Shown here piece by piece: positions 8,252 to 24,814 of a stretch of 64,000 bases of DNA. The position numbers and the translations under genes are program-made. This DNA is from Gammaproteobacteria bacterium. Lineage in GTDB: Bacteria > Pseudomonadota > Gammaproteobacteria > Pseudomonadales > JAUIET01. The stretch is from positions 46,525 to 110,524 of the forward strand of contig JAUIHW010000009.1 in the NCBI GenBank assembly GCA_030431775.1. Reading direction: 5' to 3'. Position 1 is the stretch's first letter; every line of letters begins with the position of its first letter. The notes below the pieces were generated by a model. It made no database searches. It was not told where the DNA came from and was given only the letters and a program-made list of their open reading frames with translations.

Positions 8252-9562
8252 TTAGCTCTCAGCCTGTTTGCGGGAGTTTGCCCGCTCTCGCCGCAGCGCC
8301 AACACCTCCACCGCATGGCCGTAGTCCATGCGCCCACCTTTCCAGTACCACTTGCTAGCCGGTACCGCCGGTAATTCAACGTCGGGCGCATTCAATTCAG
8401 GCGCCTCGGGCACTCGCCGCCCATCCGGCCGATGAAACACCAGCTCCCCGCTTGACGCCCGAACCACCGAAAACCCACCCTCATGCACCATCCGGTGATG
8501 ATGCCTGCACAACAGCACCAGGTTCTCAAGGCTGGTTTCCCCGCCTTCTGACCAGTGCTGTATATGGTGCCCGTCCACAAAGCGCGCACTGCAACACCCG
8601 GGAAACCGGCAACCGCCATCGCGCAGCTGTAATGCACGGCGCATTGGAGGCGGAATAGTGCGCGACTTACGCCCGATCGAAACCGGCTCACCATCACGAG
8701 ACACCACATGACTCACACTGGCATCACAACACACGCGCTTTACCGCTTCCTCCGCCAGGGACGGCCCGTCATCCAGGCCATAGCGGGGTAAACCCCTGGA
8801 AACATCGGCATGAATCAACACCTGGTAACGATCAGCCGTCTTGCATGCCTCACCCGAATGCGCAAGCTGGTCCTCCGCCATCATCGCCAGTGCATCAGCG
8901 CGCAACCGCTTTTTCCTGATCGGTAACGTTTCCGCGGAAACGGTTTTGCCCGCTTTCGTTGCTTCCTGCTCCGTCTTCCACTCGTCTTCTTCCAGCCGGG
9001 TAACAGTAAGATCCAAAGCCTTCAGAAAAACAGCACCTTGCTCAGCGCTCAAGGTTGCCTGCACCACCAGCTTACCCTCATCGTCCCAGTAATACTTCAG
9101 CGAACGCTTGTCATGTTCGGCTTGCGCCTTCTCTTTGGTAACGCGCCTGAAATGGCGCACCGTCTTCTCAATATGGCTCGCCGAGCCATGCTCGGCAATC
9201 ATTAGCAAAGTGTCTTCGTTTTCAGAACTGCCGATGCGCGTAATCGCCCGCGCTTTGGAATAACTCAACTGTCCACTGGCAAACGCCGCGGCCACCTTCG
9301 GCAAGCCCGCTAGCGCATGCGCCACGCGAACCTTCTCACGAGCTGCACCCAAAGCAATACCACACTTCCAGTTCAACCAGTGTGCGCACGATTTGCAGCC
9401 CCAGCTTGCCCAGCCGCGCTGATTGTCGAATTCGGCGATTAGCACCAGTAAGCGATAGTTAGCGGCATTAATATTGGCCGCCAGCTGCGTAATCTGTTGT
9501 TCCAGAATTTCGATGCTAGTGGCGTGAGAAGAAGGCGGAGGAAGTTTTACAATGGCGTTCAT
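8252..9562 (-). CDS. DUF222-type HNH endonuclease (13E12-repeat-like family)
   Basis: C-terminal HNH core CRFPGC...HHIQHWSEGGETSLENLVLLCRHHHRMVHEGG. Long helical N-terminal domain as in DUF222 proteins. Confidence 0.85.
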   Translation of the reverse strand: MNAIVKLPPPSSHATSIEILEQQITQLAANINAANYRLLVLIAEFDNQRGWASWGCKSCAHWLNWKCGIALGAAREKVRVAHALAGLPKVAAAFASGQLSYSKARAITRIGSSENEDTLLMIAEHGSASHIEKTVRHFRRVTKEKAQAEHDKRSLKYYWDDEGKLVVQATLSAEQGAVFLKALDLTVTRLEEDEWKTEQEATKAGKTVSAETLPIRKKRLRADALAMMAEDQLAHSGEACKTADRYQVLIHADVSRGLPRYGLDDGPSLAEEAVKRVCCDASVSHVVSRDGEPVSIGRKSRTIPPPMRRALQLRDGGCRFPGCCSARFVDGHHIQHWSEGGETSLENLVLLCRHHHRMVHEGGFSVVRASSGELVFHRPDGRRVPEAPELNAPDVELPAVPASKWYWKGGRMDYGHAVEVLALRRERANSRKQAES

Positions 9563-9595
9563 GGGCTGCTTTCCTTGTCATGGAGAGCGCCATTA

Positions 9596-9615
9596 TACTG
9601 TATATACATACAGCA
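9596..9615 (-). promoter_or_regulatory. LexA (SOS) box overlapping a TATAAT -10 element upstream of the HNH gene
   Basis: Plus strand reads TACTGTATATACATACAGCA, i.e. CTGT-N8-ACAG, 18/20 to the gammaproteobacterial consensus TACTGTATATATATACAGTA. On the gene strand ACAG is followed directly by TATAAT. Lies 34-53 nt upstream of the ATG at 9562. Confidence 0.7.
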
Positions 9616-9646
9616 TTAAAGTTAAAGTATTTTACTTAGAGCAATA

Positions 9647-10120
9647 TTACTCAACACTACCCAGTTCGTTATCCCTTGCAATACGCCGGGCTTCATCTTC
9701 AATGCGAGCACGAAGCTCATCCAGCCTGCTCATAACCCTCTCCTGGCCCATTTCAGTAGTTTGGCGCAGAATAATTGGCTGCGCGGTCATAAGCTTCTGA
9801 CCAACTGGGGATTCATGAAATTCGATCAATTTATGAATCTCTGCTTCTGAAAAATGGTCCATATAAACATATGCATACTCATCACGAAGGCTTTCATAGC
9901 TTAATACTTCAGCGTAGTACTCTCGTAACACCTTGCGATAAGGCAACAATGTAGGATTGTTTTGCAGCTCCAGTTCCGCCATCTGTTCTATTGATTGCTC
10001 AAGAACCTCTTCTGATCGGCTTACCTCAAGCAATTTGTAAGCGGCTTGCATGTGGGAGCTGAGCTCGGCGGAGGCATTGAACGCCAATAAAATAGCTAGA
10101 GTACCGACAAGGTGTCTCAT
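9647..10120 (-). CDS. DUF2059-like secreted protein
   Basis: N-terminal signal peptide. HFSEAEIHKLIEFHESPVGQKL segment typical of DUF2059. Confidence 0.6.
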   Translation of the reverse strand: MRHLVGTLAILLAFNASAELSSHMQAAYKLLEVSRSEEVLEQSIEQMAELELQNNPTLLPYRKVLREYYAEVLSYESLRDEYAYVYMDHFSEAEIHKLIEFHESPVGQKLMTAQPIILRQTTEMGQERVMSRLDELRARIEDEARRIARDNELGSVE

Positions 10121-10402
10121 ATGAATTCCCCTTTAACTGTGCGGCCGTAATGGGTTTACCATATTCACAGCTTAGTTCAGGTTCGGCTACCAACAGCTTA
10201 AAAGTGGTAAGTTACTGCTGAACGGTATAATTAAACCGTTATGACGCGCGCCCTACGATCTGCACCAGGGTATCTACGCGGGCATAATACCTATTCACCC
10301 AGTCTTCCTCTGACGTGAAGCGATAACGTAGAGCTAGCTGCTAAAATCCAGCAAGATCGCTTAAGATAGAGATATCCAAACTGGACAGTACAGCTAGCGA
10401 AA

Positions 10403-10500
10403 CTGGTGACAGTTAACCTAATTATTCAACCCCTAGAGAGCCGCTTTCTCAGCCGACCCACTGGTCAAACAATTCATAAAATGGCACGGAGAAATAGGTA
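10403..10500 (+). repeat. 98-bp direct repeat, copy 1
   Basis: Hand alignment with 11853-11950 gives 93/98 identical positions. Confidence 0.9.
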
Positions 10501-10654
10501 TCTGTCCCCGGAACTCAATAAGTATGCGGTGGCGAACAGCAAAGACGCGGTTGAAATTCGTGATGCCGAACTCAATGAACGTGCGTTGATTCATGTTGCT
10601 AGTAGCCGCGCGATTGAACGATTGATAGTGACTTATCATGGTAAGCCAAGCTAA
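10406..10654 (+). pseudogene. possible remnant of a superfamily-1 helicase C-terminus
   Basis: The ORF tail ...ALIHVASSRAIERLIVTY resembles the terminal LYVAxTRAxxxLxxxY motif of UvrD-like/DUF2075 helicases. The rest of such a gene is absent. The 5' part of the ORF is the repeat itself. Confidence 0.3.
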
Positions 10655-10855
10655 TATCTCGGGGTTTTAGGCTGAAGTTACATTGGCTCACTGCTTAGGG
10701 TGGATAATGGCAATACAACACTGCAGCTGGAAAATTAGTGAACCGCGTTGCCTGGTCGATGAATTCATACAGCCTGACATGAAGTTGTCGGGGGACCACA
10801 AGCGCGCCGCCCAGGATGGGTTGGATGCGGCTGGGAATTGATGTATTCATAAGCG

Positions 10856-11728
10856 ATGAATAGCGAAGAGCAGCAACTACCTCTATTTGATACCGATCCC
10901 GACAGTCAGTTTCCAAGTGCAGAGGAGTTGCCTACTGCAGTCTCAGTAGGCTCTGAATTTAGTAAGTACATCGTGTATGTTGATGAGAGCGGGGATCATG
11001 GCCTAAAAAGCATTGATGAGCACTACCCCGTGTTCGTTCTGGCATTCTGCATTTTTCATAAGCGCCACTACAGTGAGGCCATAGTCCCTGCATTGGAGAA
11101 GTTCAAATTCAATTGGTTTGGTCATGACCAGATAATTTTGCATGAGAACGAAATTCGAAAGGAATCTGGCGCTTTCAATATCTTTAAAAGCAAGGAGGAA
11201 AACCTCGAGTTTCTTGATCAATTGACGGGGATAATAGAGCGAAGCAACTTTGTGCTGGTTAGTTGCACTATTGATAAGCGTGCACTCAGAAATCGGGGAG
11301 AGTCAGGTTCTAACCCGTATCACATAGCGCTTGCTTCTTGCATGGAATCATTGCACGGCTTCCTTGAGGAAAAAAGTCAGGGTGAGAGAAAAACACACGT
11401 AGTGTTCGAATGCCGCGGCAAGAAAGAGGATCAGAAACTTGAGTTGGAATTTCGGCGTATCTGTGATGGCAACAACAGTTTAGGTATCAACCTACCTTTT
11501 GAGATCCAATTCTCCGATAAAAAAGCCATGTCTTCCGGCTTGCAACTGGCGGATCTTGTCGCTCGGCCAATTGGGCTGAGTACGCTGAAACCCGATCAAC
11601 ACAATCGAGCGTTTGAGGTTCTAAAATGCAAATTCTACTGCGAAGGTGGAAGAGAAAGTGTCGGTGAGGGTTACGAGGGAGTGGGCATGAAGATTTACCC
11701 TGCCCCAGAAAGCGAAAAGTCCCGGTGA
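10856..11728 (+). CDS. DUF3800 domain protein
   Basis: YIVYVDESGDHG N-terminal motif and overall pattern typical of DUF3800. Confidence 0.75.
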   Translation: MNSEEQQLPLFDTDPDSQFPSAEELPTAVSVGSEFSKYIVYVDESGDHGLKSIDEHYPVFVLAFCIFHKRHYSEAIVPALEKFKFNWFGHDQIILHENEIRKESGAFNIFKSKEENLEFLDQLTGIIERSNFVLVSCTIDKRALRNRGESGSNPYHIALASCMESLHGFLEEKSQGERKTHVVFECRGKKEDQKLELEFRRICDGNNSLGINLPFEIQFSDKKAMSSGLQLADLVARPIGLSTLKPDQHNRAFEVLKCKFYCEGGRESVGEGYEGVGMKIYPAPESEKSR

Positions 11729-11852
11729 ACCCACCGAGACTATAGCGCCGACCGGGCACCCCCAATCCACTTACCGTACAGTATATATCAAAATGATTCA
11801 CCAGAATGCCATTGGGTCGGCTAGGTTTGTCAACTTTTGTTCATTCTGGAAT

Positions 11853-11950
11853 CTGGGGACAGTTAACTTAATTATTCAACCCCTAGAGAGCTGCTTTCTC
11901 AGCCGACTCACTGGTCAAACAATTCATAAAATAGCACGGAGAAATAGGTA
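11853..11950 (+). repeat. 98-bp direct repeat, copy 2
   Basis: See copy 1. Ends 48 nt upstream of the DUF1993 gene start. Confidence 0.9.
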
Positions 11951-11997
11951 AACTTGTATCCGGAATTCAACCAACCACCAACTAAGGAATCACTTCC

Positions 11998-12576
11998 ATG
12001 GCCAACTCCATGTATAAATCGAGCGTTCAGGTTTACACCCACAACCTGAAGAATTTAGCCGCGATGTTGAAAACCGCTGAGAAAGACGCGAAAGCACGAG
12101 GTATAGACTCGTCGGTCATGGTGAACGCACGGCTCGCGCCGGACATGTTGCCGTTGGTGTCACAGGTGCAGATGGTGAGCGACAACGCCAAGGGCGCTTG
12201 TGCGCGGCTGGCTGGTGTTGAACCACCCGCATTCAAAGACAATGAAACGACCTTTGCCGAGCTGCAAGACCGCATCAAGCGCACGCTGGCGTTTATCCGC
12301 ACATTGAAAGCCAAACAGTTCGAAGGGGCTGAAAGCCGTGAAGTAGTGATGACGCTTCCTGTCGGCAAGCTAACGTTCAACGGCGCTGATTACCTGAATG
12401 GTTTTGCGCTGCCAAACTTTTACTTCCACATTACTACGGCGTACAACATTCTGCGCCACAATGGCGTGGGCCTGGGCAAAATGGATTTTCTTGGCAATGT
12501 GCCTGGCATGCAAGCCAGCGGAAAGTTAGCCAAGATGATGGGCAAGCAGCCTAAGAAGAAAGCAAAGGCAAAATAA
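11998..12576 (+). CDS. DUF1993 (DinB/YfiT-like) protein with Lys-rich tail
   Basis: LAPDMLPL...NFYFHITTAYNILRHNGVGLGKMDFLG is characteristic of DUF1993. Confidence 0.75.
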   Translation: MANSMYKSSVQVYTHNLKNLAAMLKTAEKDAKARGIDSSVMVNARLAPDMLPLVSQVQMVSDNAKGACARLAGVEPPAFKDNETTFAELQDRIKRTLAFIRTLKAKQFEGAESREVVMTLPVGKLTFNGADYLNGFALPNFYFHITTAYNILRHNGVGLGKMDFLGNVPGMQASGKLAKMMGKQPKKKAKAK

Positions 12577-13494: not shown

Positions 13495-14034
13495 CTACCA
13501 CATCAAATCATCGGGAATTTGATAGTCTGCATACGGGTCATCTTCATCCACTTCTTGCGTACCCGCAACATTCTGCAGCAACACAACGCTGTCATCGCGC
13601 TGCTTTATTTTGTCGGCCACCTGCGTGGGCACTAATTCGTAGTTGCCGCCATTTACCACAATCGCGATCTGGCCGTGGCTGAGCTGATTTTGCAGTAGGG
13701 GCGTGACGTACAGTTTTTTGATCTTTTTGCCGTGCGTGAATTGGTAGGCGATGTCGCCGTTCTTGCGGTCAATTCGATTGGTATCGATGAGTTGCTTAAT
13801 CTGCGCGGCTATCGCTTTTTCGTTGGCTGCTTGCTGGCGTTGGCGGTTGGCTTCCTTGTCCCGGGCGATGCGTTCGGCCCTGGCCTCGCGTGCCCGCAGT
13901 TGGGCTTCAGTTTCCTGAGCGGCCTGGCCCTTGGGCTGCTGCCTGGCTTCCTTCCGTTGCTGCTTCTGAATCTGTTTGGCTTTCTTCTCGTCAACCATGC
14001 CGGCCTTGAGAAGTTGGTCTTGTAGTGACTTCAT
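13495..14034 (-). CDS. DUF2058 (YaiL-like) protein
   Basis: MKSLQDQLLKAGMVDEKKAKQ start, Lys/Gln/Arg-rich middle, conserved C-terminal domain. Confidence 0.7.
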   Translation of the reverse strand: MKSLQDQLLKAGMVDEKKAKQIQKQQRKEARQQPKGQAAQETEAQLRAREARAERIARDKEANRQRQQAANEKAIAAQIKQLIDTNRIDRKNGDIAYQFTHGKKIKKLYVTPLLQNQLSHGQIAIVVNGGNYELVPTQVADKIKQRDDSVVLLQNVAGTQEVDEDDPYADYQIPDDLMW

Positions 14035-14050: not shown

Positions 14051-14063
14051 TGGTGCCAGGGGC
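14051..14063 (+). repeat. candidate distal att repeat of the island
   Basis: TGGTGCCAGGGGC versus TGGTGCCCAGGGGC at 24739-24752 (the tRNA-Phe 3' end); one base is missing. The composition shift starts just to the right. Confidence 0.45.
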
Positions 14064-14337
14064 TCTACCGCATACATAAGCCAAGACATTGTTTTGTTAC
14101 AATAAATTTCCGTCAGGATAAAATAGATGCCATCAGATATACCATCTGCTCACCCAGAACAGGCGTTCATTTTATACCATGCATGGGATGTTCGGGTGCT
14201 CAATATTCTCTGCTAATGCTACAAATTGGGTTGGCGAAGGTATGCAGGCATCGAGGGATCTACCCAGAACCACCAGATGGTGTCATAAGGCTGGCTTTAT
14301 CGTCCAACTCAGTTTCAAGCATCTGTTTTCCTTTCTG

Positions 14338-14925
14338 TTAATTGGCCGATTGATTATATTCACTCGTCTCTTTCTCTTTTTTCTCAGCTTCATCAAGCAA
14401 ACCTTGGTAGATAGTGAAATACTCAGAGGTTTCAAAGCTGTTTTTGTACACATCTTCGTAGACAAGTTGAAGTTTTAGAGGAATGATCGCTCGCCACATG
14501 TCATTGCGGTTATCCTGAAATTCGAGACTCGGTTTTTCGCTAGTTTGAAATAGCAATAGGTCAAATTTTTTGCCTGGTTGAAGCGCAACATTTTTCAAAC
14601 CTTTCTTGTAATCATTCCACTTCATATCGTGTTTAAGTGGGTCAGGCATAAGCTCAATAAGCGACGTTGCTTCTCGAGTAGGATTGGTAGTATCGATAAC
14701 AGTGACTGACTGAACAATCATTGGACCTGCACCCCGATTCTCCAGCTCTACTCCAAATTTGTTCTGATAAGTTAGCCGGTTAACACTATGAATAGGCAAA
14801 AGAGATTTGTGATTGTGTTCTCGCTGTACGCTTAGGGCTTCCCGTGCCTGCCAGATTGCTATGCAGGATACGAGAAGCGCCAACACGGCAACTAGTGCTT
14901 CTGGGTGATTTCTTAGATATTCCAT
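14338..14925 (-). CDS. hypothetical single-pass membrane protein
   Basis: One N-terminal TM helix (ALVAVLALLVSCIAIW) followed by a beta-rich soluble part. I chose the ATG at 14925; the ORF track starts at 14961. Confidence 0.55.
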   Translation of the reverse strand: MEYLRNHPEALVAVLALLVSCIAIWQAREALSVQREHNHKSLLPIHSVNRLTYQNKFGVELENRGAGPMIVQSVTVIDTTNPTREATSLIELMPDPLKHDMKWNDYKKGLKNVALQPGKKFDLLLFQTSEKPSLEFQDNRNDMWRAIIPLKLQLVYEDVYKNSFETSEYFTIYQGLLDEAEKKEKETSEYNQSAN

Positions 14926-14982
14926 CACGTGTATAGATCTCCTGAATTGCAGTACTCCCAATGTAAAATAGGTGCATGCATG

Positions 14983-15600
14983 TTATCCAAACAACCCGGC
15001 GCGTTCAGTGCGAACACCACTTAGGTGGTTCATTTTAATCCAGAGATTTGTTCTTAAGGAGTGATGCTCAGGCTGCACCAACTCTATAAGATAGTCGCAA
15101 AAACTTGCTTCAAGCGCTTTGTGGAATCTGCGCACGTCAAGTGTGTAACCCTCGCGGTCGTCGCTAGATACTTTGCGAAGCATCGTACTTTGATTGCGGC
15201 GAACAAGCCACATATTCTTTGCTTCCGCTTGATGTAACAATCCGCAGCGAATATCTTCATAGAATTTGGTACGAGCTTCCTCATCGAAATCCGGTTGGAA
15301 CTTACTCCCAGTTAAATATGTTGTTACTAGCGCGCGAGATCGTCTAGTTCCATCAGTGCACCCTTCGCGAAATTGCTGAAGCGCCTCTATCAGCAGGCAA
15401 TCAATTGCTAGAACCGTAAACCCTGAATTTTCATCCTCCAAGCATCGCCGGGCAAACTTTAGAAATCGCCCATCAAGTCTATCTTGCACAATATCTACAG
15501 CCCTTCGCCAGTCGGCTTCTGAATCTTCACGCAAATGTCCCCATTGTTCGCAATTGTAGTTCGGCGAAATTCTCAACGGTCCGTCATCATAGTAACCCAC
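14983..15600 (-). CDS. hypothetical protein with RX4H (HEPN-like) motif
   Basis: 205 aa, predicted mostly helical. R118-C-G-L-L-H123 followed by QAE resembles the HEPN RX4-6H signature. No other recognisable domain. Confidence 0.35.
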   Translation of the reverse strand: MGYYDDGPLRISPNYNCEQWGHLREDSEADWRRAVDIVQDRLDGRFLKFARRCLEDENSGFTVLAIDCLLIEALQQFREGCTDGTRRSRALVTTYLTGSKFQPDFDEEARTKFYEDIRCGLLHQAEAKNMWLVRRNQSTMLRKVSSDDREGYTLDVRRFHKALEASFCDYLIELVQPEHHSLRTNLWIKMNHLSGVRTERAGLFG

Positions 15601-15720
15601 AGTATTTCTCCCTCCAATCTGATATTCGTGCCAGCTTGGATAATTATACGTTTGGGCAAATCTATGCGAAATGGTAGAACCGCAAGCCAGTATGGCGGCG
15701 AGAAATGAAATGAATGTTTA

Positions 15721-15766
15721 GATATTTGAAATAGATAACGTTATCGACTTAATGATATTTCAAATG
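15721..15766 (-). promoter_or_regulatory. operator-like palindrome cluster upstream of the 14983-15600 gene
   Basis: Perfect 12-bp palindrome GATAACGTTATC (15734-15745), flanked by GATATTTGAAAT and GATATTTCAAAT. Lies in a 247-bp AT-rich gap. Confidence 0.4.
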
Positions 15767-15847
15767 TAGCTACCAGTGTGACAATATTGCCTTCTCAGAA
15801 AAATGTGTTTCCGCAAAGTGTTGGTTTGGCTGGCGTCTACTATGACG

Positions 15848-16459
15848 TCATACCTTCAGGACTTTATTTACTCTTTCTGGTGAGTTTCCAGATAGCCGCG
15901 CAATTTGCTTGCAAATGCGCTCCAAACGATTTTTGTGTTTCGATTTTTTCTTTCTATATTGAACAGCACTTTCCACAAGTACGAATAGCAGATGCCTCTG
16001 CGCTTCACGATATCGCAAGGCCTCATCGTTATTAAGTCTCAGCAATTCAACGGCAAGCAAACCCATTGAGCTACGAGACTTGATAAAGTGTGAATCAAAA
16101 ACTAGATGCTCAGACATATTAGTATCACATGGGTTAGGCACCTGCTTACTCGGGCTGTCTGACCAATAATTCTTTTTGAATCTATTGCAGCTAGCGCACG
16201 AGTAGAATAAATTGGTGTAGCGGCTTTCCAATTCAGGAAATAAGGATTTTGGCCGGTAATGCTCCACATGAAAGGAGCTTGTATCTTGATCGAGGTCATG
16301 CGCTCTACAGTACACACAGTGGTTCGCAAACTCTGCTTTAAGGTAAGGCTTGTATTTTCGGTAGTCGTTGTAGCTTGGGGGAGTTAACGTTCTCTTGTGA
16401 ATTGCTGTGGGGTACTTAAAAGGGTCTATTTTTGAAAAGCACTTCCACTCTGCGCTCAT
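15848..16459 (-). CDS. HNH endonuclease (TIGR02646-like, CX2C...H-N-H...CX2C)
   Basis: CVYC ... FHVEHYRPKS ... YTNLFYSCASCNRFK. Start is 4 nt after the upstream stop. Confidence 0.75.
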   Translation of the reverse strand: MSAEWKCFSKIDPFKYPTAIHKRTLTPPSYNDYRKYKPYLKAEFANHCVYCRAHDLDQDTSSFHVEHYRPKSLFPELESRYTNLFYSCASCNRFKKNYWSDSPSKQVPNPCDTNMSEHLVFDSHFIKSRSSMGLLAVELLRLNNDEALRYREAQRHLLFVLVESAVQYRKKKSKHKNRLERICKQIARLSGNSPERVNKVLKV

Positions 16460-16462
16460 TGA

Positions 16463-16882
16463 TCACTTTTCCGGCTGCTCTAAAAGCTCATTGACTAACT
16501 CATAAGATTCTTTCAATAGACTCCAATGATCTTCAGAGTATCGAAAATATTTCAAGTCAGCTATTTGATTTAGAATCTGGAGGCGAGCGTCATCCTCGCG
16601 GTTTAGCTCAAGACTGTCTGTAGCATACTTTTTGGCAATAAGAGCGATTCTGTCGCTAAGGTCTTGGTCAGTTTCCAGCTCGATATCCACAGAACGATCG
16701 AAGTAGTTTGAGCCCAAAGATATTTGCGGGCTCCAATCCATTGCGTCTTCGTCATACAAAGATACTGTTGCATCGCTTCGATATGAACCAACTATGCTTG
16801 TAGAACTTACAGCTGGCCACCACTCGCTTCTGCCAGAAATAAAAGGCGAATCTTCTAAATACTCAGCTATTTGCAACGCCAC
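16463..16882 (-). CDS. small acidic hypothetical protein
   Basis: 139 aa, rich in Asp/Glu, no recognisable motif. Its start overlaps the upstream gene by 20 nt. Confidence 0.55.
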   Translation of the reverse strand: MALQIAEYLEDSPFISGRSEWWPAVSSTSIVGSYRSDATVSLYDEDAMDWSPQISLGSNYFDRSVDIELETDQDLSDRIALIAKKYATDSLELNREDDARLQILNQIADLKYFRYSEDHWSLLKESYELVNELLEQPEK

Positions 16883-17636
16883 TTCTCAATGCCTCCTTTG
16901 CTTTCTCGCCTAATGACCACCAAAAAAAGGGAAAATGAAGCTTGTGATAGTCATCTAACAAATCTATACAAGCATCAGCTTCAACATCTTCATTAAAATA
17001 GTCATAATCCAGAATAAAGTGCCTACTTTTCACTTCAGGTGGTGCTAAACCATATCTAAAACCGTACCTCCCCCCGCATTCAAGAGGCCCGGTAATCTCA
17101 TTCTTCATGGTGAAAACAGACCCGATCTCCGTTCCAATCGGACGAACCAAATCACTGTTGATCCAGTCGGCAAGGTCATTGCCGTCTGCACTTATGTCTT
17201 TGATATTGTTAATGAAGCGAAGTCCAATGCGGGTGAAAAATGGTGCTTTAAGGCTAGGGATACAATTATCAAGCACGTACTTAAAGTTATTCAAAAAATT
17301 CTCGAAAGACTGGTAGTCATGTGTGGAAAGCACAACCCGTGAGGATGTAACTTCTATCTTGAAATTATTTTGTCGATTGGAAAAAGAGAAAACTGCCTCC
17401 GGTTCAGTTACGCCTGCTGGAGTAACTTGGCGAGTTTCACCTGCTTCATATCTGGGGAAGTCTTTACGCAATTTGTCGGAGATTTCCGGTATTGCTGTTT
17501 CTTTCAAGTGCAGGTAGGTTGGATAGCGTATCTCGACAATGACCTGGTCGAGGTAGTTCTTATCAAATACCTCGCGGGGCACTTCAGGAAACTGAAAATA
17601 CTGGTTGGAGTTGACGGGTTTTCTCATCTCGCTCAT
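16863..17636 (-). CDS. TIGR04255-like uncharacterised protein
   Basis: YLDQVIVEIRYP near the N-terminus and a central RIGLRFINNI segment recall the TIGR04255 family. I chose the ATG at 17636; the ORF track starts at 17687. Confidence 0.5.
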   Translation of the reverse strand: MSEMRKPVNSNQYFQFPEVPREVFDKNYLDQVIVEIRYPTYLHLKETAIPEISDKLRKDFPRYEAGETRQVTPAGVTEPEAVFSFSNRQNNFKIEVTSSRVVLSTHDYQSFENFLNNFKYVLDNCIPSLKAPFFTRIGLRFINNIKDISADGNDLADWINSDLVRPIGTEIGSVFTMKNEITGPLECGGRYGFRYGLAPPEVKSRHFILDYDYFNEDVEADACIDLLDDYHKLHFPFFWWSLGEKAKEALRSGVANS

Positions 17637-17872
17637 CAGTGAGTTGCCAGATTGTATCTGGAAGCTTGAATAAGCATTTCTATGCAAGGATATCAGGATA
17701 GCATACCTAGCGATTCTTGTTGGTGATTAGAGGCGCGTTGTATCGGTAAGCCGCCAGCGCGATAATCTAAATATTGCTACCAAAAACGATTATATTTCAG
17801 CTACTTATGATCTGCACAAATGAGAAGCGTAAAGACTGACGGGTACTTTCTCATAAACTTGGCACATTACTT

Positions 17873-18544: not shown

Positions 18545-19055
18545 GTTGTTCCTCCAAAACTTTGTTTTGCTCATTTTCGATATCTTTCACGCGCGCGTCT
18601 TGCCCCCCGTTGTTTACCTGCTGATGTCCCCGGGCCACATTCTGTTGCCGCACAAACGTGGCGCCACGTGGATTTTTAATGTCCGAGATCGTCTGCAGAG
18701 TGGTTCGGCATTGGTTCTGCGCTCTCAAAGCAGTTTTCATAAACAACTCGAGTTGATAACCCGACACACCTTGGGCAGTTGCTCTCTGTACCAGTTTATT
18801 GAACAACGCGTCGAGCGTATGTGCCTGACAGATCAGCATCGCTTCCGCGTTGTTCATATCATTATTGTTGACGGCCTCTACTTGCTCGCGTAGCACTTCC
18901 GTTAGCCCCTCGACAAACAGAGATTTATTCTTATGAACCGCTGTCAATGTATGGTTGGCTTGAACGGCCGCGTCTACTTGGGCACGCGCTGCTAAGCCGG
19001 GCCATTCGAAGTTCTCTGGGACTTCAATATCCTCTAGCTCATCATCATCCGTCAT
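18450..19055 (-). CDS. hypothetical island-core protein
   Basis: 201 aa. Acidic N-terminus, helical centre, tail EEQHGERLDFG. Its stop region overlaps the next gene by about 95 nt. Confidence 0.5.
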   Translation of the reverse strand: MTDDDELEDIEVPENFEWPGLAARAQVDAAVQANHTLTAVHKNKSLFVEGLTEVLREQVEAVNNNDMNNAEAMLICQAHTLDALFNKLVQRATAQGVSGYQLELFMKTALRAQNQCRTTLQTISDIKNPRGATFVRQQNVARGHQQVNNGGQDARVKDIENEQNKVLEEQHGERLDFGAPGEAARGDSAMEAMAVQHRAQD

Positions 19056-19927
19056 CCTATCGATCCTAGTTCTTGTAATACGCCTTGGCGCAAATCCTGT
19101 TCTGCTTCCAATACCGTTTGATAGGTCGGCCAGTCGATACGAGCGGTGATCGCCTCCTCAACCAGCTGTAAAAGAATGTCCGGTGGTAACGCCTCACACT
19201 GAACGGTAGCGTCATCATCGAAGCGGCGCCGGTCTGTTTTCTTCGGGGGTGCGGTTGGCAGGTCGAATTGTTCCCGCTGCTCAGGTGTTACAGCCAATCG
19301 AGTAAACTCAACCTGGCCATCAAACCCCACCGTAAATGCCGCGATGTCTTCATGCAGTGAGCTGAACATGTGCACCCCCGATGGGTCGTAATCTCCCAGA
19401 TGCAACACCTCACAGTGGCCCAGGCTCGCCAGCTCTCTTGCGATCCTTTGCTTGGTCGTCAGTGAGTCAAAGCCACCACTAGAGACCACTGGGACACCGT
19501 ATTCCAGGCAAACGCTCTCCAACATAGGTTGCATGCCACGGGCTTCACACCACGCCATCAAGCGCTTGTGCTGACCTGCTTGCCTATCCATTCGCACGGA
19601 CTGAGCATGGCGCTGGTATCGGGTCAGCACATCGTCAACATCGGTGAAACAGTCCAATTCTGACTCATAGAAACCATCGTCACGAATGTGTTCCATTTGG
19701 ATCAGCTTGGCGCGTCTCGCGAGATTGGTGACATCACACAGTCGCTTGTAGCCTTTCTCGGTCTTCTCGATCTCCTGTTTCACGACTAGTCGGTAAAATA
19801 TTTGCCGCAACGTCAACGGGAGTTGTTGTCGGTACTCTGCCAACACCGCGCTGATAGCCGCCACCATATCCCTGGTCTTTGGTTGCGGGTTCCAATCGGT
19901 TATAAATCCGCGTGGCCTTGTGCTCAT
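19052..19927 (-). CDS. Spo11/topoisomerase VI-A-like (Mini-A-type) winged-helix + Toprim protein
   Basis: LTLRQIFYRLV matches the catalytic-Tyr context of Spo11/TopoVI-A (..RDIFY..). HLGDYDPSGVHMF is a Toprim DxD motif. No B subunit is nearby. Confidence 0.55.
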   Translation of the reverse strand: MSTRPRGFITDWNPQPKTRDMVAAISAVLAEYRQQLPLTLRQIFYRLVVKQEIEKTEKGYKRLCDVTNLARRAKLIQMEHIRDDGFYESELDCFTDVDDVLTRYQRHAQSVRMDRQAGQHKRLMAWCEARGMQPMLESVCLEYGVPVVSSGGFDSLTTKQRIARELASLGHCEVLHLGDYDPSGVHMFSSLHEDIAAFTVGFDGQVEFTRLAVTPEQREQFDLPTAPPKKTDRRRFDDDATVQCEALPPDILLQLVEEAITARIDWPTYQTVLEAEQDLRQGVLQELGSIG

Positions 19928-23322: not shown

Positions 23323-24561
23323 CTATAAACTAATCTCACCCTTAGGTTCTAGTATGATGACATTATCTGACTTGGCCAATCCCCGTAGATTGTCCAAGTA
23401 ATCAGCCCATTTCTGCATCATCTCTATTCGTTCAGGCAGATGCTTAGTCCGGTTATATGCACGCCCAAGAGGGTCTCGAACATCGTGTGCCAGCTGGTGT
23501 TCAATAATGTGAGGCGGGAACCCGAGCTGCTCATCAAGCAGAGTTCTGGCCATTGCTCTGAAACCATGGGCTGTCATTTCTTCCTTAGCGATCCCCATTC
23601 GACGCAGAGCTGCATTTAGTGCGTTCTCGCTCATCGCACGTTTTTTGGATCGTTCGCTAGGGAACACATATTGCCAGCGGCCAGAGAGCTCATGTTGATC
23701 CTGCAGAATTTCAATTGCTTGATTGGATAACGGCACAATGTGCGCCTGCTTCATCTTCATTTTCTCGGCCGGCAGTCGCCATTGTCGCTCTTCGAAATCG
23801 ACTTCCGACCACTCCATATACCGAAGTTCACCAGGTCGTACAAAGACCAACGGAGCAAGCAGCAGCGCGTTTCTCACGGTCGCTGTGCCGGAATAGCCAT
23901 CGATCATCGTCAATAGCTTACCTACGTCAGCAGGCTCTGTAATGGCCGCATAGTGGACGGTCTGAGGCGTTTGCAGCGCCCCCTTAAGGTCAGCACTTGG
24001 GTCACGTTCACAACGGCCGGTGGCGACGGCGTACCTGAATATCTGGCCCGCTACCTGTTTTACACGCCTGGTCGTCTCCAGGGCGCCGCGGCTTTCAGTC
24101 TTGCGGAGTGCAGCCAATAGGGTAGGGGGCGTAATCTCGCTGATTGGATGTCGGCCTATGTACGGGAAGAGGTTTTTCTCAAGGAGCCAATACTGTTTCT
24201 TCGCATGGGCAGGCGACCAACTATCCTGCTCTTTGGCGAGCCACTCTCGGCCTATCGCCTCAAAGCTATTCTCTGCCGCATCCTTTCTGGCATCTCGCAT
24301 TGATCGTTTTAGAGTCGATGGGTCGACGTTGTTTCGGATCAGCTTCCTGGCTTCGTCGCGCTCGTCTCTGGCTTCCCTGAGACTGATCTCTGGGTACACA
24401 CCGAGAGCAAGGGTCTTCTGTTTATCACCCCAACGATAGTTCATTCGCCAGTACTTGCCCCCGTTCTTCTTAACCAGCAAGTACAGCGACTTCTCATCGC
24501 TGGCTTTGTAGTCTTTATCTTTGGGTTTGAAATTCTCGATCTGCTTAACAGTAAGTGCCAT
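23323..24561 (-). CDS. int: P4/CP4-57-type tyrosine integrase
   Basis: N-terminal ALTVKQIENFKPKDKDYKASD...YWRMNYRWGDKQKTLALGVYPEISLREAR (DUF4102-type arm-binding domain). C-terminal AHGFRAMARTLL ... HQLAH ... YNR catalytic region. ATG at 24561. Confidence 0.9.
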   Translation of the reverse strand: MALTVKQIENFKPKDKDYKASDEKSLYLLVKKNGGKYWRMNYRWGDKQKTLALGVYPEISLREARDERDEARKLIRNNVDPSTLKRSMRDARKDAAENSFEAIGREWLAKEQDSWSPAHAKKQYWLLEKNLFPYIGRHPISEITPPTLLAALRKTESRGALETTRRVKQVAGQIFRYAVATGRCERDPSADLKGALQTPQTVHYAAITEPADVGKLLTMIDGYSGTATVRNALLLAPLVFVRPGELRYMEWSEVDFEERQWRLPAEKMKMKQAHIVPLSNQAIEILQDQHELSGRWQYVFPSERSKKRAMSENALNAALRRMGIAKEEMTAHGFRAMARTLLDEQLGFPPHIIEHQLAHDVRDPLGRAYNRTKHLPERIEMMQKWADYLDNLRGLAKSDNVIILEPKGEISL

Positions 24562-24738
24562 CGTTTTGTCCCGTTTGATGGTACATGGGTTGTGGTACCA
24601 GCAAGATACCCTCATTGGTACCATCAAATACCATGGATGTGATGGTACCGCTATGGACGGGTATGGACAATAGGGGGTGAAAAAAGCCTTAATTTACAGG
24701 GCTTTCTGGACGTCTATGGAAGTTGGTGGACTTGTTGA

Positions 24739-24814
24739 TGGTGCCCAGGGGCGGAATCGAACCACCGACACGAGGATTTTCAATCCACTGCTCTACCGAC
24801 TGAGCTACCTGGGC
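24739..24814 (-). tRNA. tRNA-Phe (anticodon GAA)
   Basis: The reverse complement reads GCCCAGGTAGCTCAGTCGGTAGAGCAGTGGATTGAAAATCCTCGTGTCGGTGGTTCGATTCCGCCCCTGGGCACCA. It has a 7-bp acceptor stem, T-loop TTCGATT and anticodon loop TTGAAAA, and is close to E. coli tRNA-Phe. Confidence 0.92.

Follow-up and report, generated by a model that had tools for sequence, protein, structure and literature searches.

A solo RX4H protein of a large uncharacterised HEPN-like family, carried by a gammaproteobacterial tRNA-Phe island

In the HEPN superfamily, the characteristic motif lies at the end of a helix, an acidic residue, typically in the form Ex3[KR], is found in helix 2, and a polar residue (N, D or H) typically follows the Arg; this last feature is called 'typical', not required (PMC3710099). 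One member, the HEPN-AbiV ribonuclease (RNase) of Lactococcus, is built around a bundle of alpha2, alpha3, alpha7 and alpha8, with a central RX6H and a beta-hairpin at 141-151 (10.1101/2024.05.05.592566). The present study concerns a gene for a protein of 205 amino acids (aa), referred to as the RX4H gene, and the membrane protein gene that follows it, in a 64,000-nucleotide (nt) stretch of DNA, the window, from Gammaproteobacteria bacterium (GenBank assembly GCA_030431775.1, contig JAUIHW010000009.1, positions 46,525 to 110,524 of the forward strand). HEPN nucleases paired with membrane proteins are known from Cas13b with Csx27/Csx28, where the pairing is conserved across many genomes. A first-pass annotation of the window had proposed that the two genes studied here form a module of this kind. 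The interpretation favoured in what follows is a different one: with a probability of roughly 55%, the RX4H gene is regarded as self-contained island cargo, encoding a solo member of an undescribed HEPN-like family and a probable single-gene defence RNase.

14983..15600, minus strand: RX4H gene, 205 aa, GTG start; solo member of a large uncharacterised HEPN-like family
15611..15615, minus strand: Shine-Dalgarno sequence GGAGG, 10 nt before the GTG start of the RX4H gene, read from the sequence
15223..15249, minus strand: codons of the putative catalytic motif RCGLLHQAE (R118-C-G-L-L-H123-Q-A-E126), read from the translation

The GTG start is taken to be correct, because the N-terminus that it gives, MGYYDDGPLRISP, agrees with MGYHDFGPLRISP of the closest homologues and because GGAGG stands 10 nt upstream. 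The 205-aa protein has no match in Pfam, NCBIfam, PADLOC-DB v2 or PHROGs. A word-indexed search returned at least 363 homologues, typically 52-60% identical and all annotated as 'hypothetical', while an exhaustive profile search yielded 2,872 clusters at 50% identity with E<=1e-3, 1,698 of them with E<=1e-10. The family is found in both bacteria and archaea. The sequence statistics given below are based on the top 150 of the 2,872 clusters together with the window protein, and the locus statistics on 63 genome loci from Pseudomonadota, Acidobacteriota, Chloroflexota, Nitrospirota, Planctomycetota, Bacteroidota, Spirochaetota and several archaeal lineages. As with the window protein, 49 family members gave no significant match in Pfam and none in PADLOC. 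The family is undescribed; it most resembles known HEPN families but belongs to none of them.

A maximum-likelihood tree places the window protein with those of Halomonas stenophila and Halopseudomonas pelagia (support 96/87), within a clade of 21 members (support 100/100) in which five phyla are mixed, and horizontal transfer is therefore indicated. Family members occur in 19 plasmid records, all annotated as hypothetical. There are no matches in 50,697 phage genomes, and two weak ones in 2.9 million IMG/VR contigs. Nearly absent from phage collections and present on plasmids, the family is therefore accessory cargo of hosts or plasmids, consistent with a role in defence or addiction.

A small set of residues is highly conserved. 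R118 and H123 are both present in 151/151 sequences, R41 in 149/149, R45 in 148/150 and G80 in 150/151, while position 72 is occupied by Glu in 148 sequences and by Asp in the other 3 of 151. Conservation is less strict further along the motif, with Q124 in 126/151 and position 126 being Glu in 118 and Gln in 31 of the 151. The residue following the Arg is Cys in 121 cases, Asn in 28, Asp in 1 and Val in 1 (n=151). In its extended form the signature reads R-[CN]-G-[IL]-L-H-Q-x-E, or RxGxLHQxE. The motif is likewise invariant in a set of 49 sequences taken from genomes, with identities as low as 21%. An R-x4-H pattern is not rare by chance in a protein of 205 aa, with about 0.2 expected by our own rough estimate; the motif is meaningful because it is invariant across the family, not because it is uncommon. 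The first-pass annotation had picked out R118-CGLL-H123-QAE and left its conservation among homologues as a question to be settled. Codons 15249-15223 confirm the motif, and the invariance of its Arg and His answers that question in its favour.

The AF2 (AlphaFold2) model of the 205-aa protein is a confident one, with a pLDDT (predicted local distance difference test) of 89.2 and a pTM (predicted template modelling score) of 0.86. It consists of helices at 28-54 and 60-79, a short one at 88-95, and further helices at 107-118 (ending at R118), 120-130 (bearing H123), 156-175 and 180-204, with three strands between 131 and 155. The protein had been described as helical in the first-pass annotation, which holds for most of it; the model also contains the three-stranded sheet. 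When placed beside the HEPN superfamily (PMC3710099), the model appears to follow a similar plan. The motif is located at the junction of helices 107-118 and 120-130, so that, as modelled, the Arg of the invariant R-x4-H would stand at a helix end and the His in the next element. E72, in helix 60-79, would be the acidic residue expected in helix 2 of the first hairpin, the insert between helices 2 and 3 would correspond to residues 80-106, and the beta element that follows the motif, as in Csx1, to strands 131-155. As judged from this model, the 205-aa protein is likely to have a HEPN fold.

Several observations weigh against this fold or against the RNase role put forward below. In a Foldseek comparison with the PDB, AbiV (9bj7) ranks first, but at a level that is not significant (E=0.54, probability 0.28, template modelling score 0.26-0.30), which makes the HEPN fold plausible, not proven; a comparison with BFVD gave a single better score, for a viral protein that carries no name (E 6.7e-3), and this is the one match that looks significant. 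When the 49 members were compared with the HEPN families of Pfam, none matched significantly, the one marginal case being PF18736 (E=0.11). Matches to curated HEPN profiles are absent in PADLOC and NCBIfam, and a profile search of the PDB gave chance matches only. In 80% of the family sequences the Arg is followed by Cys, not by N, D or H, and E72 does not belong to an Ex3[KR], since the +4 position is Q, S or A, not K or R (K in just 2/151). Furthermore, a defence toxin would not usually be as conserved as this protein, which keeps about 55% identity between phyla. Toxicity would be expected of a solo RNase that is not regulated, and no antitoxin or regulator has come to light. Finally, the recurrent fusions to a cyclotransferase-type domain described below are unexplained by a simple RNase model. 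Alignment by hhalign of the family profile with single HEPN_SAV_6107 and DUF4145 proteins, and with a 312-aa family discussed below, was uninformative. Of the first-pass assignment to the HEPN RX4-6H proteins, the motif and a fitting topology have thus stood, whereas a significant structural or profile match to HEPN, including by the Foldseek comparison that it had proposed, was not obtained.

The RNase activity and defence role that we infer could be realised as follows. Given an AbiV-like HEPN fold, dimerisation would bring R118 and H123 together in a composite, metal-independent RNase site, which R41 and R45 of helix 1 and E72 of helix 2 may line or assist. The protein would be inactive until infection or stress and would then cut RNA, leading to growth arrest as with AbiV, AbiD and AbiF. 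It would therefore act as a triggered single-gene RNase, of the abortive-infection or toxin type.

The genomic context is that of defence islands and mobile elements. In the window, a tRNA-Phe island of 10.7 kb carries both genes at its distal end; its GC content is 0.47, against 0.57-0.58 for its flanks.

24739-24814, minus strand: tRNA-Phe, one island border
23323-24627, minus strand: P4-type integrase, beside tRNA-Phe
15848-17687, minus strand: three-gene TIGR04255-139aa-HNH operon, adjoining the RX4H gene in the island
14052..14064, no strand assigned: degenerate copy of the tRNA-Phe 3' end (TGGTGCC-AGGGGC), 13/14; distal border of the island, shortly past the membrane gene

Elsewhere, every RX4H locus with Pfam-annotated neighbours holds defence or mobile-element genes, as in the following cases.

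Pseudohongiella: Type I restriction-modification, AbiGi and a 2,144-aa NACHT protein
Halomonas: a DUF3584/DUF7281 (Wadjet-like) cluster, MvaT and IS21
Alcanivorax: a DUF4011-AAA_11/12-MTES_1575 helicase-nuclease, in an islet between ubiD and rho
Acidobacteriota: an AAA_11/12-MTES_1575-type helicase-nuclease, DUF4145, MNT-HEPN_SAV_6107 and ApeA-HEPN
Acidobacteriota, another locus: two integrases, a primase, SLFN_AlbA_2 and a PRTRC ubiquitin-like set
Saprospiraceae: SMODS-S_4TM, NERD and MNT/HepT

Large proteins combining a Upf1-like helicase with a restriction-endonuclease fold (AAA_11/AAA_12-MTES_1575) are encoded a few kb from the RX4H gene in Alcanivorax (L079, 395-5866) and on two acidobacterial contigs of one lineage (L087, 9303-12518; L088, 8472-12941). 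In that acidobacterial lineage (L087-L090), the gene downstream of the RX4H gene encodes a protein of 209-248 aa with a PD...E-x-K pattern (TPDYAIF...VITEIKEI), typical of restriction-endonuclease-fold nucleases, and the two genes overlap by 38 nt in L089 and L090.

Only one partner of the RX4H gene recurs, and it is of another kind: a gamma-glutamyl cyclotransferase (GGCT) of the GGCT/AIG2 type, which is adjacent in 8 loci. In six of these, a GGACT/AIG2-like gene (141-178 aa) comes after the RX4H gene, with anything from an 8-nt overlap to a 13-nt gap; in a seventh (L028) it lies beside the RX4H gene in divergent orientation, and in the eighth (L061) the following gene encodes a ChaC-like 'GWGSL' protein. 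The association also takes the form of fusions, as 12/20 long family members carry a C-terminal Pfam GGACT/AIG2 domain and most of the others have 'AYGSL' or degenerate GGCT-like C-termini. GGCT-linked members are scattered over the deeper branches of the tree, and the window's 21-member clade has none, which suggests that the association is ancestral and has been lost by the solo clade. No literature linking GGCT enzymes with HEPN proteins or phage defence was found, and as far as could be determined the association is new. In a Saprospiraceae metagenome-assembled genome (L096, 3122-6106, the same as L039), genes for a SMODS cyclase, an S_4TM effector, the RX4H protein and a GGACT protein follow one another in the same direction, with gaps of 9, 25 and -7 nt, and the RX4H-GGACT pair may be appended to a pair resembling a cyclic-oligonucleotide-based antiphage signalling system (CBASS).

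Two alternatives start from this association. The first, which we put forward tentatively and hold to be rather doubtful, is that RxGxLHQxE and GGCT together constitute an unrecognised conflict system, in which RNA cleavage, or RNA or nucleotide sensing, is coupled to gamma-glutamyl chemistry, for example by making, sensing or removing a modification or by depleting a gamma-glutamyl metabolite. The window's clade would then be a streamlined solo derivative that acquires local accessory genes, such as that for the membrane protein. The second, which is unlikely, dispenses with the nuclease: RX4H would be a binding or catalytic domain working with GGCT-fold enzymes on a substrate or modification of the gamma-glutamyl type, and the window's clade would have lost its partner. 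The neighbours in 8 loci, the GGCT-type fusions in most long members and the presence of GGCT-linked members in the deeper branches, with none in the well-supported window clade, are what this explanation accounts for. However, motif and topology are those expected of HEPN RNases, GGCT is missing from the surroundings of most members and of the entire window clade, and the contexts are defence islands rather than metabolic operons. No precedent for such a domain was found in the literature.

The solo RNase favoured here also has to be weighed against the pairing with the membrane protein, for which the following features are relevant.

14338..14961, minus strand: gene of a near-orphan single-pass membrane protein, 207 aa from a TTG start; a neighbour, not a conserved partner
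14854..14910, minus strand: predicted transmembrane helix of this neighbour, residues 18-36 in the 207-aa numbering, with a Kyte-Doolittle window mean of 1.78

The membrane gene probably starts at GTG 14928 or ATG 14925, giving 196 or 195 aa. An AGGAG at 14943-14939 lies 10-13 nt before these codons, and the source assembly calls the gene at 196 aa. The gap to the RX4H gene measures 54-57 nt from the GTG or ATG start, in agreement with the 57 nt of the first-pass annotation, and 21 nt from the TTG. Both genes are on the same strand, and there is no terminator in between. The membrane gene is probably co-transcribed with the RX4H gene in the window. No RNA-seq run with the region was found, and the DNA runs with the region are of the same strain only. 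The N-terminal transmembrane helix of the first-pass annotation is supported by the hydropathy of residues 18-36 and by an AF2 helix at 20-52, with a pLDDT of 81-86 for residues 11-40. The overall pLDDT of this model is 41.8, and it falls below 50 beyond residue 44, too low to verify the beta-rich domain of the first-pass annotation. The membrane protein has no match in Pfam, NCBIfam, PADLOC or PHROGs, and one homologue was found among 5.8 billion clusters (P0122, 45% identity); two metagenome scans gave no further relatives. This homologue keeps the transmembrane segment and the ELENRGAGP motif; its contig, 2.9 kb long, bears no gene of the RX4H family. The ELENRGAGP motif recurs in a DUF11/CARDB-like repeat protein (L074), a sequence likeness that hints at a beta-sandwich in the membrane protein.

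A true two-gene module, in which the RX4H protein senses or cleaves and the membrane protein serves as effector or regulator, would have to be found in other genomes. It is not: about 56 genome loci, followed to a distance of about 6 kb from the RX4H gene, contain no relative of the membrane protein, and no neighbour family is common to more than 5 of these loci when 793 open reading frames (ORFs) from the related loci and the window are clustered. The two-gene module of the first-pass annotation thus fails because the pair is not linked elsewhere; the pairing is known from one genome only, and the single homologue of the partner occurs away from RX4H genes. The Halomonas locus of the closest homologue lacks a downstream partner. 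A related version, in which RX4H is the first gene of operons with a variable second gene, can draw not only on the shared strand, the short gap and the separate AGGAG of the window pair, but also on the close or overlapping co-directional genes downstream in other loci. These encode PD-(D/E)xK-like proteins (38-nt overlap), an 83-aa ParD-like ribbon-helix-helix (RHH) protein, a 63-aa product with SLFN next in line, and GGACT. The RX4H-GGACT pair comes after the gene of an S_4TM membrane effector in one locus. A co-directional downstream ORF of at least 100 aa within 150 nt exists in only about 30% of loci, which was judged to be no more than ordinary gene packing. Both versions are considered improbable, to about the same degree as the non-nuclease domain discussed above.

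A parallel case should be mentioned. The P0122 gene is likewise followed, 91 nt downstream, by the gene of a helical protein (L001, 1382-2320; 312 aa), which belongs to another large unannotated family (642 hits) with invariant E58-x3-K62, H86, H88 and R94. Weak matches to Pfam HEPN models (PF05168 HEPN and DUF7103; best E 0.004) are seen in 4/24 members, and an undescribed HEPN-like family may be represented here as well. The RX4H and 312-aa families, each of them the helical neighbour of a membrane protein, are unrelated by hhalign. With n=2, a combination of a membrane protein with a HEPN-like protein is kept alive as a curiosity of low probability. The membrane protein of the window is probably a lineage-specific neighbour, not an obligatory partner, although it might modulate the system locally, and the pair should not be treated as a 'HEPN + membrane protein' system.

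A solo RNase could also be the toxin of an addiction module of the toxin-antitoxin (TA) kind, with a neutraliser that varies by locus, either a protein or a cis-encoded RNA as for AbiV and abiV2. This is less probable again than the pairing, even though AbiV is neutralised by an upstream RNA, the ParD-like RHH gene of the Alcanivorax locus lies 51 nt downstream, and family members are found on plasmids and integrative elements. In the window, no antitoxin-like gene is present and a membrane protein would be an unusual antitoxin. The intergenic region upstream of the RX4H gene (15601-15847; 247 nt), searched by analogy with abiV2, gave no structure signal (z=-1.47), no Rfam match and no repeats. 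Its GC content of 39% agrees with the AT-rich upstream region of the first-pass annotation. It holds a promoter candidate, and the number of promoter-like sites in it is no higher than chance, as judged from shuffles.

15643..15670, minus strand: sigma-70-like promoter candidate TTCGCA-16-TATAAT, a consensus match only, 10/12

Just past the HNH stop codon, at 15725-15775 on the minus strand, an AT-rich inverted repeat (UUUGAAAUAU...AUAUUUCAAA-like stem) is followed by a T-rich run, and this is a possible terminator between the HNH operon and the RX4H gene. The further suggestion of the first-pass annotation, that the two genes and the adjacent TIGR04255-139aa-HNH operon act as a five-gene unit, is close to refuted: the genes are neighbours on the same strand with a similarly low GC content (0.42-0.47), but they are separated by 247 nt with a promoter-like site and the AT-rich hairpin, and the idea falls because the HNH-operon genes are absent from all related loci, the three operon proteins being singleton clusters among the 793 ORFs and having no homologue in the roughly 56 RX4H loci.

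The other genes of the island and its surroundings deserve a brief description. The operon at 15848-17687 encodes a TIGR04255-family protein of 274 aa (E 1.4e-32), an acidic 139-aa protein without annotation and a PtuB-like HNH endonuclease of 203 aa (PADLOC PtuB, E 4.9e-24). The PtuA ATPase is absent, and the operon looks like a Septu-like variant in which TIGR04255 and the small protein take the place of PtuA. The island protein at 19052-19927 (minus strand), which matches phrog_6247 'DNA topoisomerase' (E 3e-40) and, weakly, JetD (PADLOC, E 0.0035), is a Toprim/JetD-like domain protein and part of the island replication core. Metagenome run X1 contains the DUF2058 core gene (13500-13975) in two sequence variants, at depths of about 13 and 4-5, and a 10.8-kb contig stops at about 13944, near the island border. 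This suggests a mixture of strains in that sample, some carrying the island and others lacking it or carrying a different one. A second low-GC patch (9500-12000; 0.43-0.48) contains genes for a DUF3800 protein (10856-11728) and a DUF2059 protein, as well as duplicated fragments (TVNLIIQPLES...) at 10406 and 11793, and the gene of a DUF222-HNH protein (8252-9562) lies next to the patch, which may represent a further small insertion.

If the RX4H protein is a HEPN RNase, its family, which numbers at least 2,872 clusters at the 50% identity level and extends over bacteria and archaea, would be among the larger unannotated candidate families of single-gene defence or toxin proteins. Because no Pfam, NCBIfam, PADLOC or PHROG model covers it, defence-annotation pipelines miss it. 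The family is a tractable experimental target for three reasons: its conservation is unusually strict, its motif is extended to RxGxLHQxE, and fusions to a GGCT fold recur in it.

The locus can be compared with four described groups of proteins. GGCT/GGACT/AIG2-like cyclotransferases (PF06094, PF13772) are the RX4H partner elsewhere and are absent from the window and its clade. As in Cas13b with Csx27/Csx28, a HEPN protein, here a putative one, and a small membrane protein are encoded together in the window, but in one genome only. From the HEPN superfamily at large the RX4H family differs in that it matches no Pfam HEPN family, that it has a three-stranded beta insert, and that its motif extends through Q124 and E126 to RxGxLHQxE; its context of defence islands and mobile elements is common to that superfamily, including AbiD/AbiF (Abi_2). 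The closest counterpart seems to be AbiV (PDB 9bj7; 10.1101/2024.05.05.592566). There is no sequence or profile similarity between the two; the RX6H of AbiV lies in a flexible loop and neither of its residues is strictly conserved, unlike the invariant RX4H at a helix junction, and AbiV needs the abiV2 RNA, of which no equivalent is evident in the 247 nt upstream of the RX4H gene. On the other hand, AbiV is a single-domain protein of 201 aa, similar in size to the 205-aa protein, and it is likewise the product of a stand-alone gene in a defence context. According to the model, the two proteins would also be alike in layout, with a helix hairpin at the N-terminus, the RXnH at the centre, a beta-hairpin near residue 145 and, at the C-terminus, two helices that complete the bundle.

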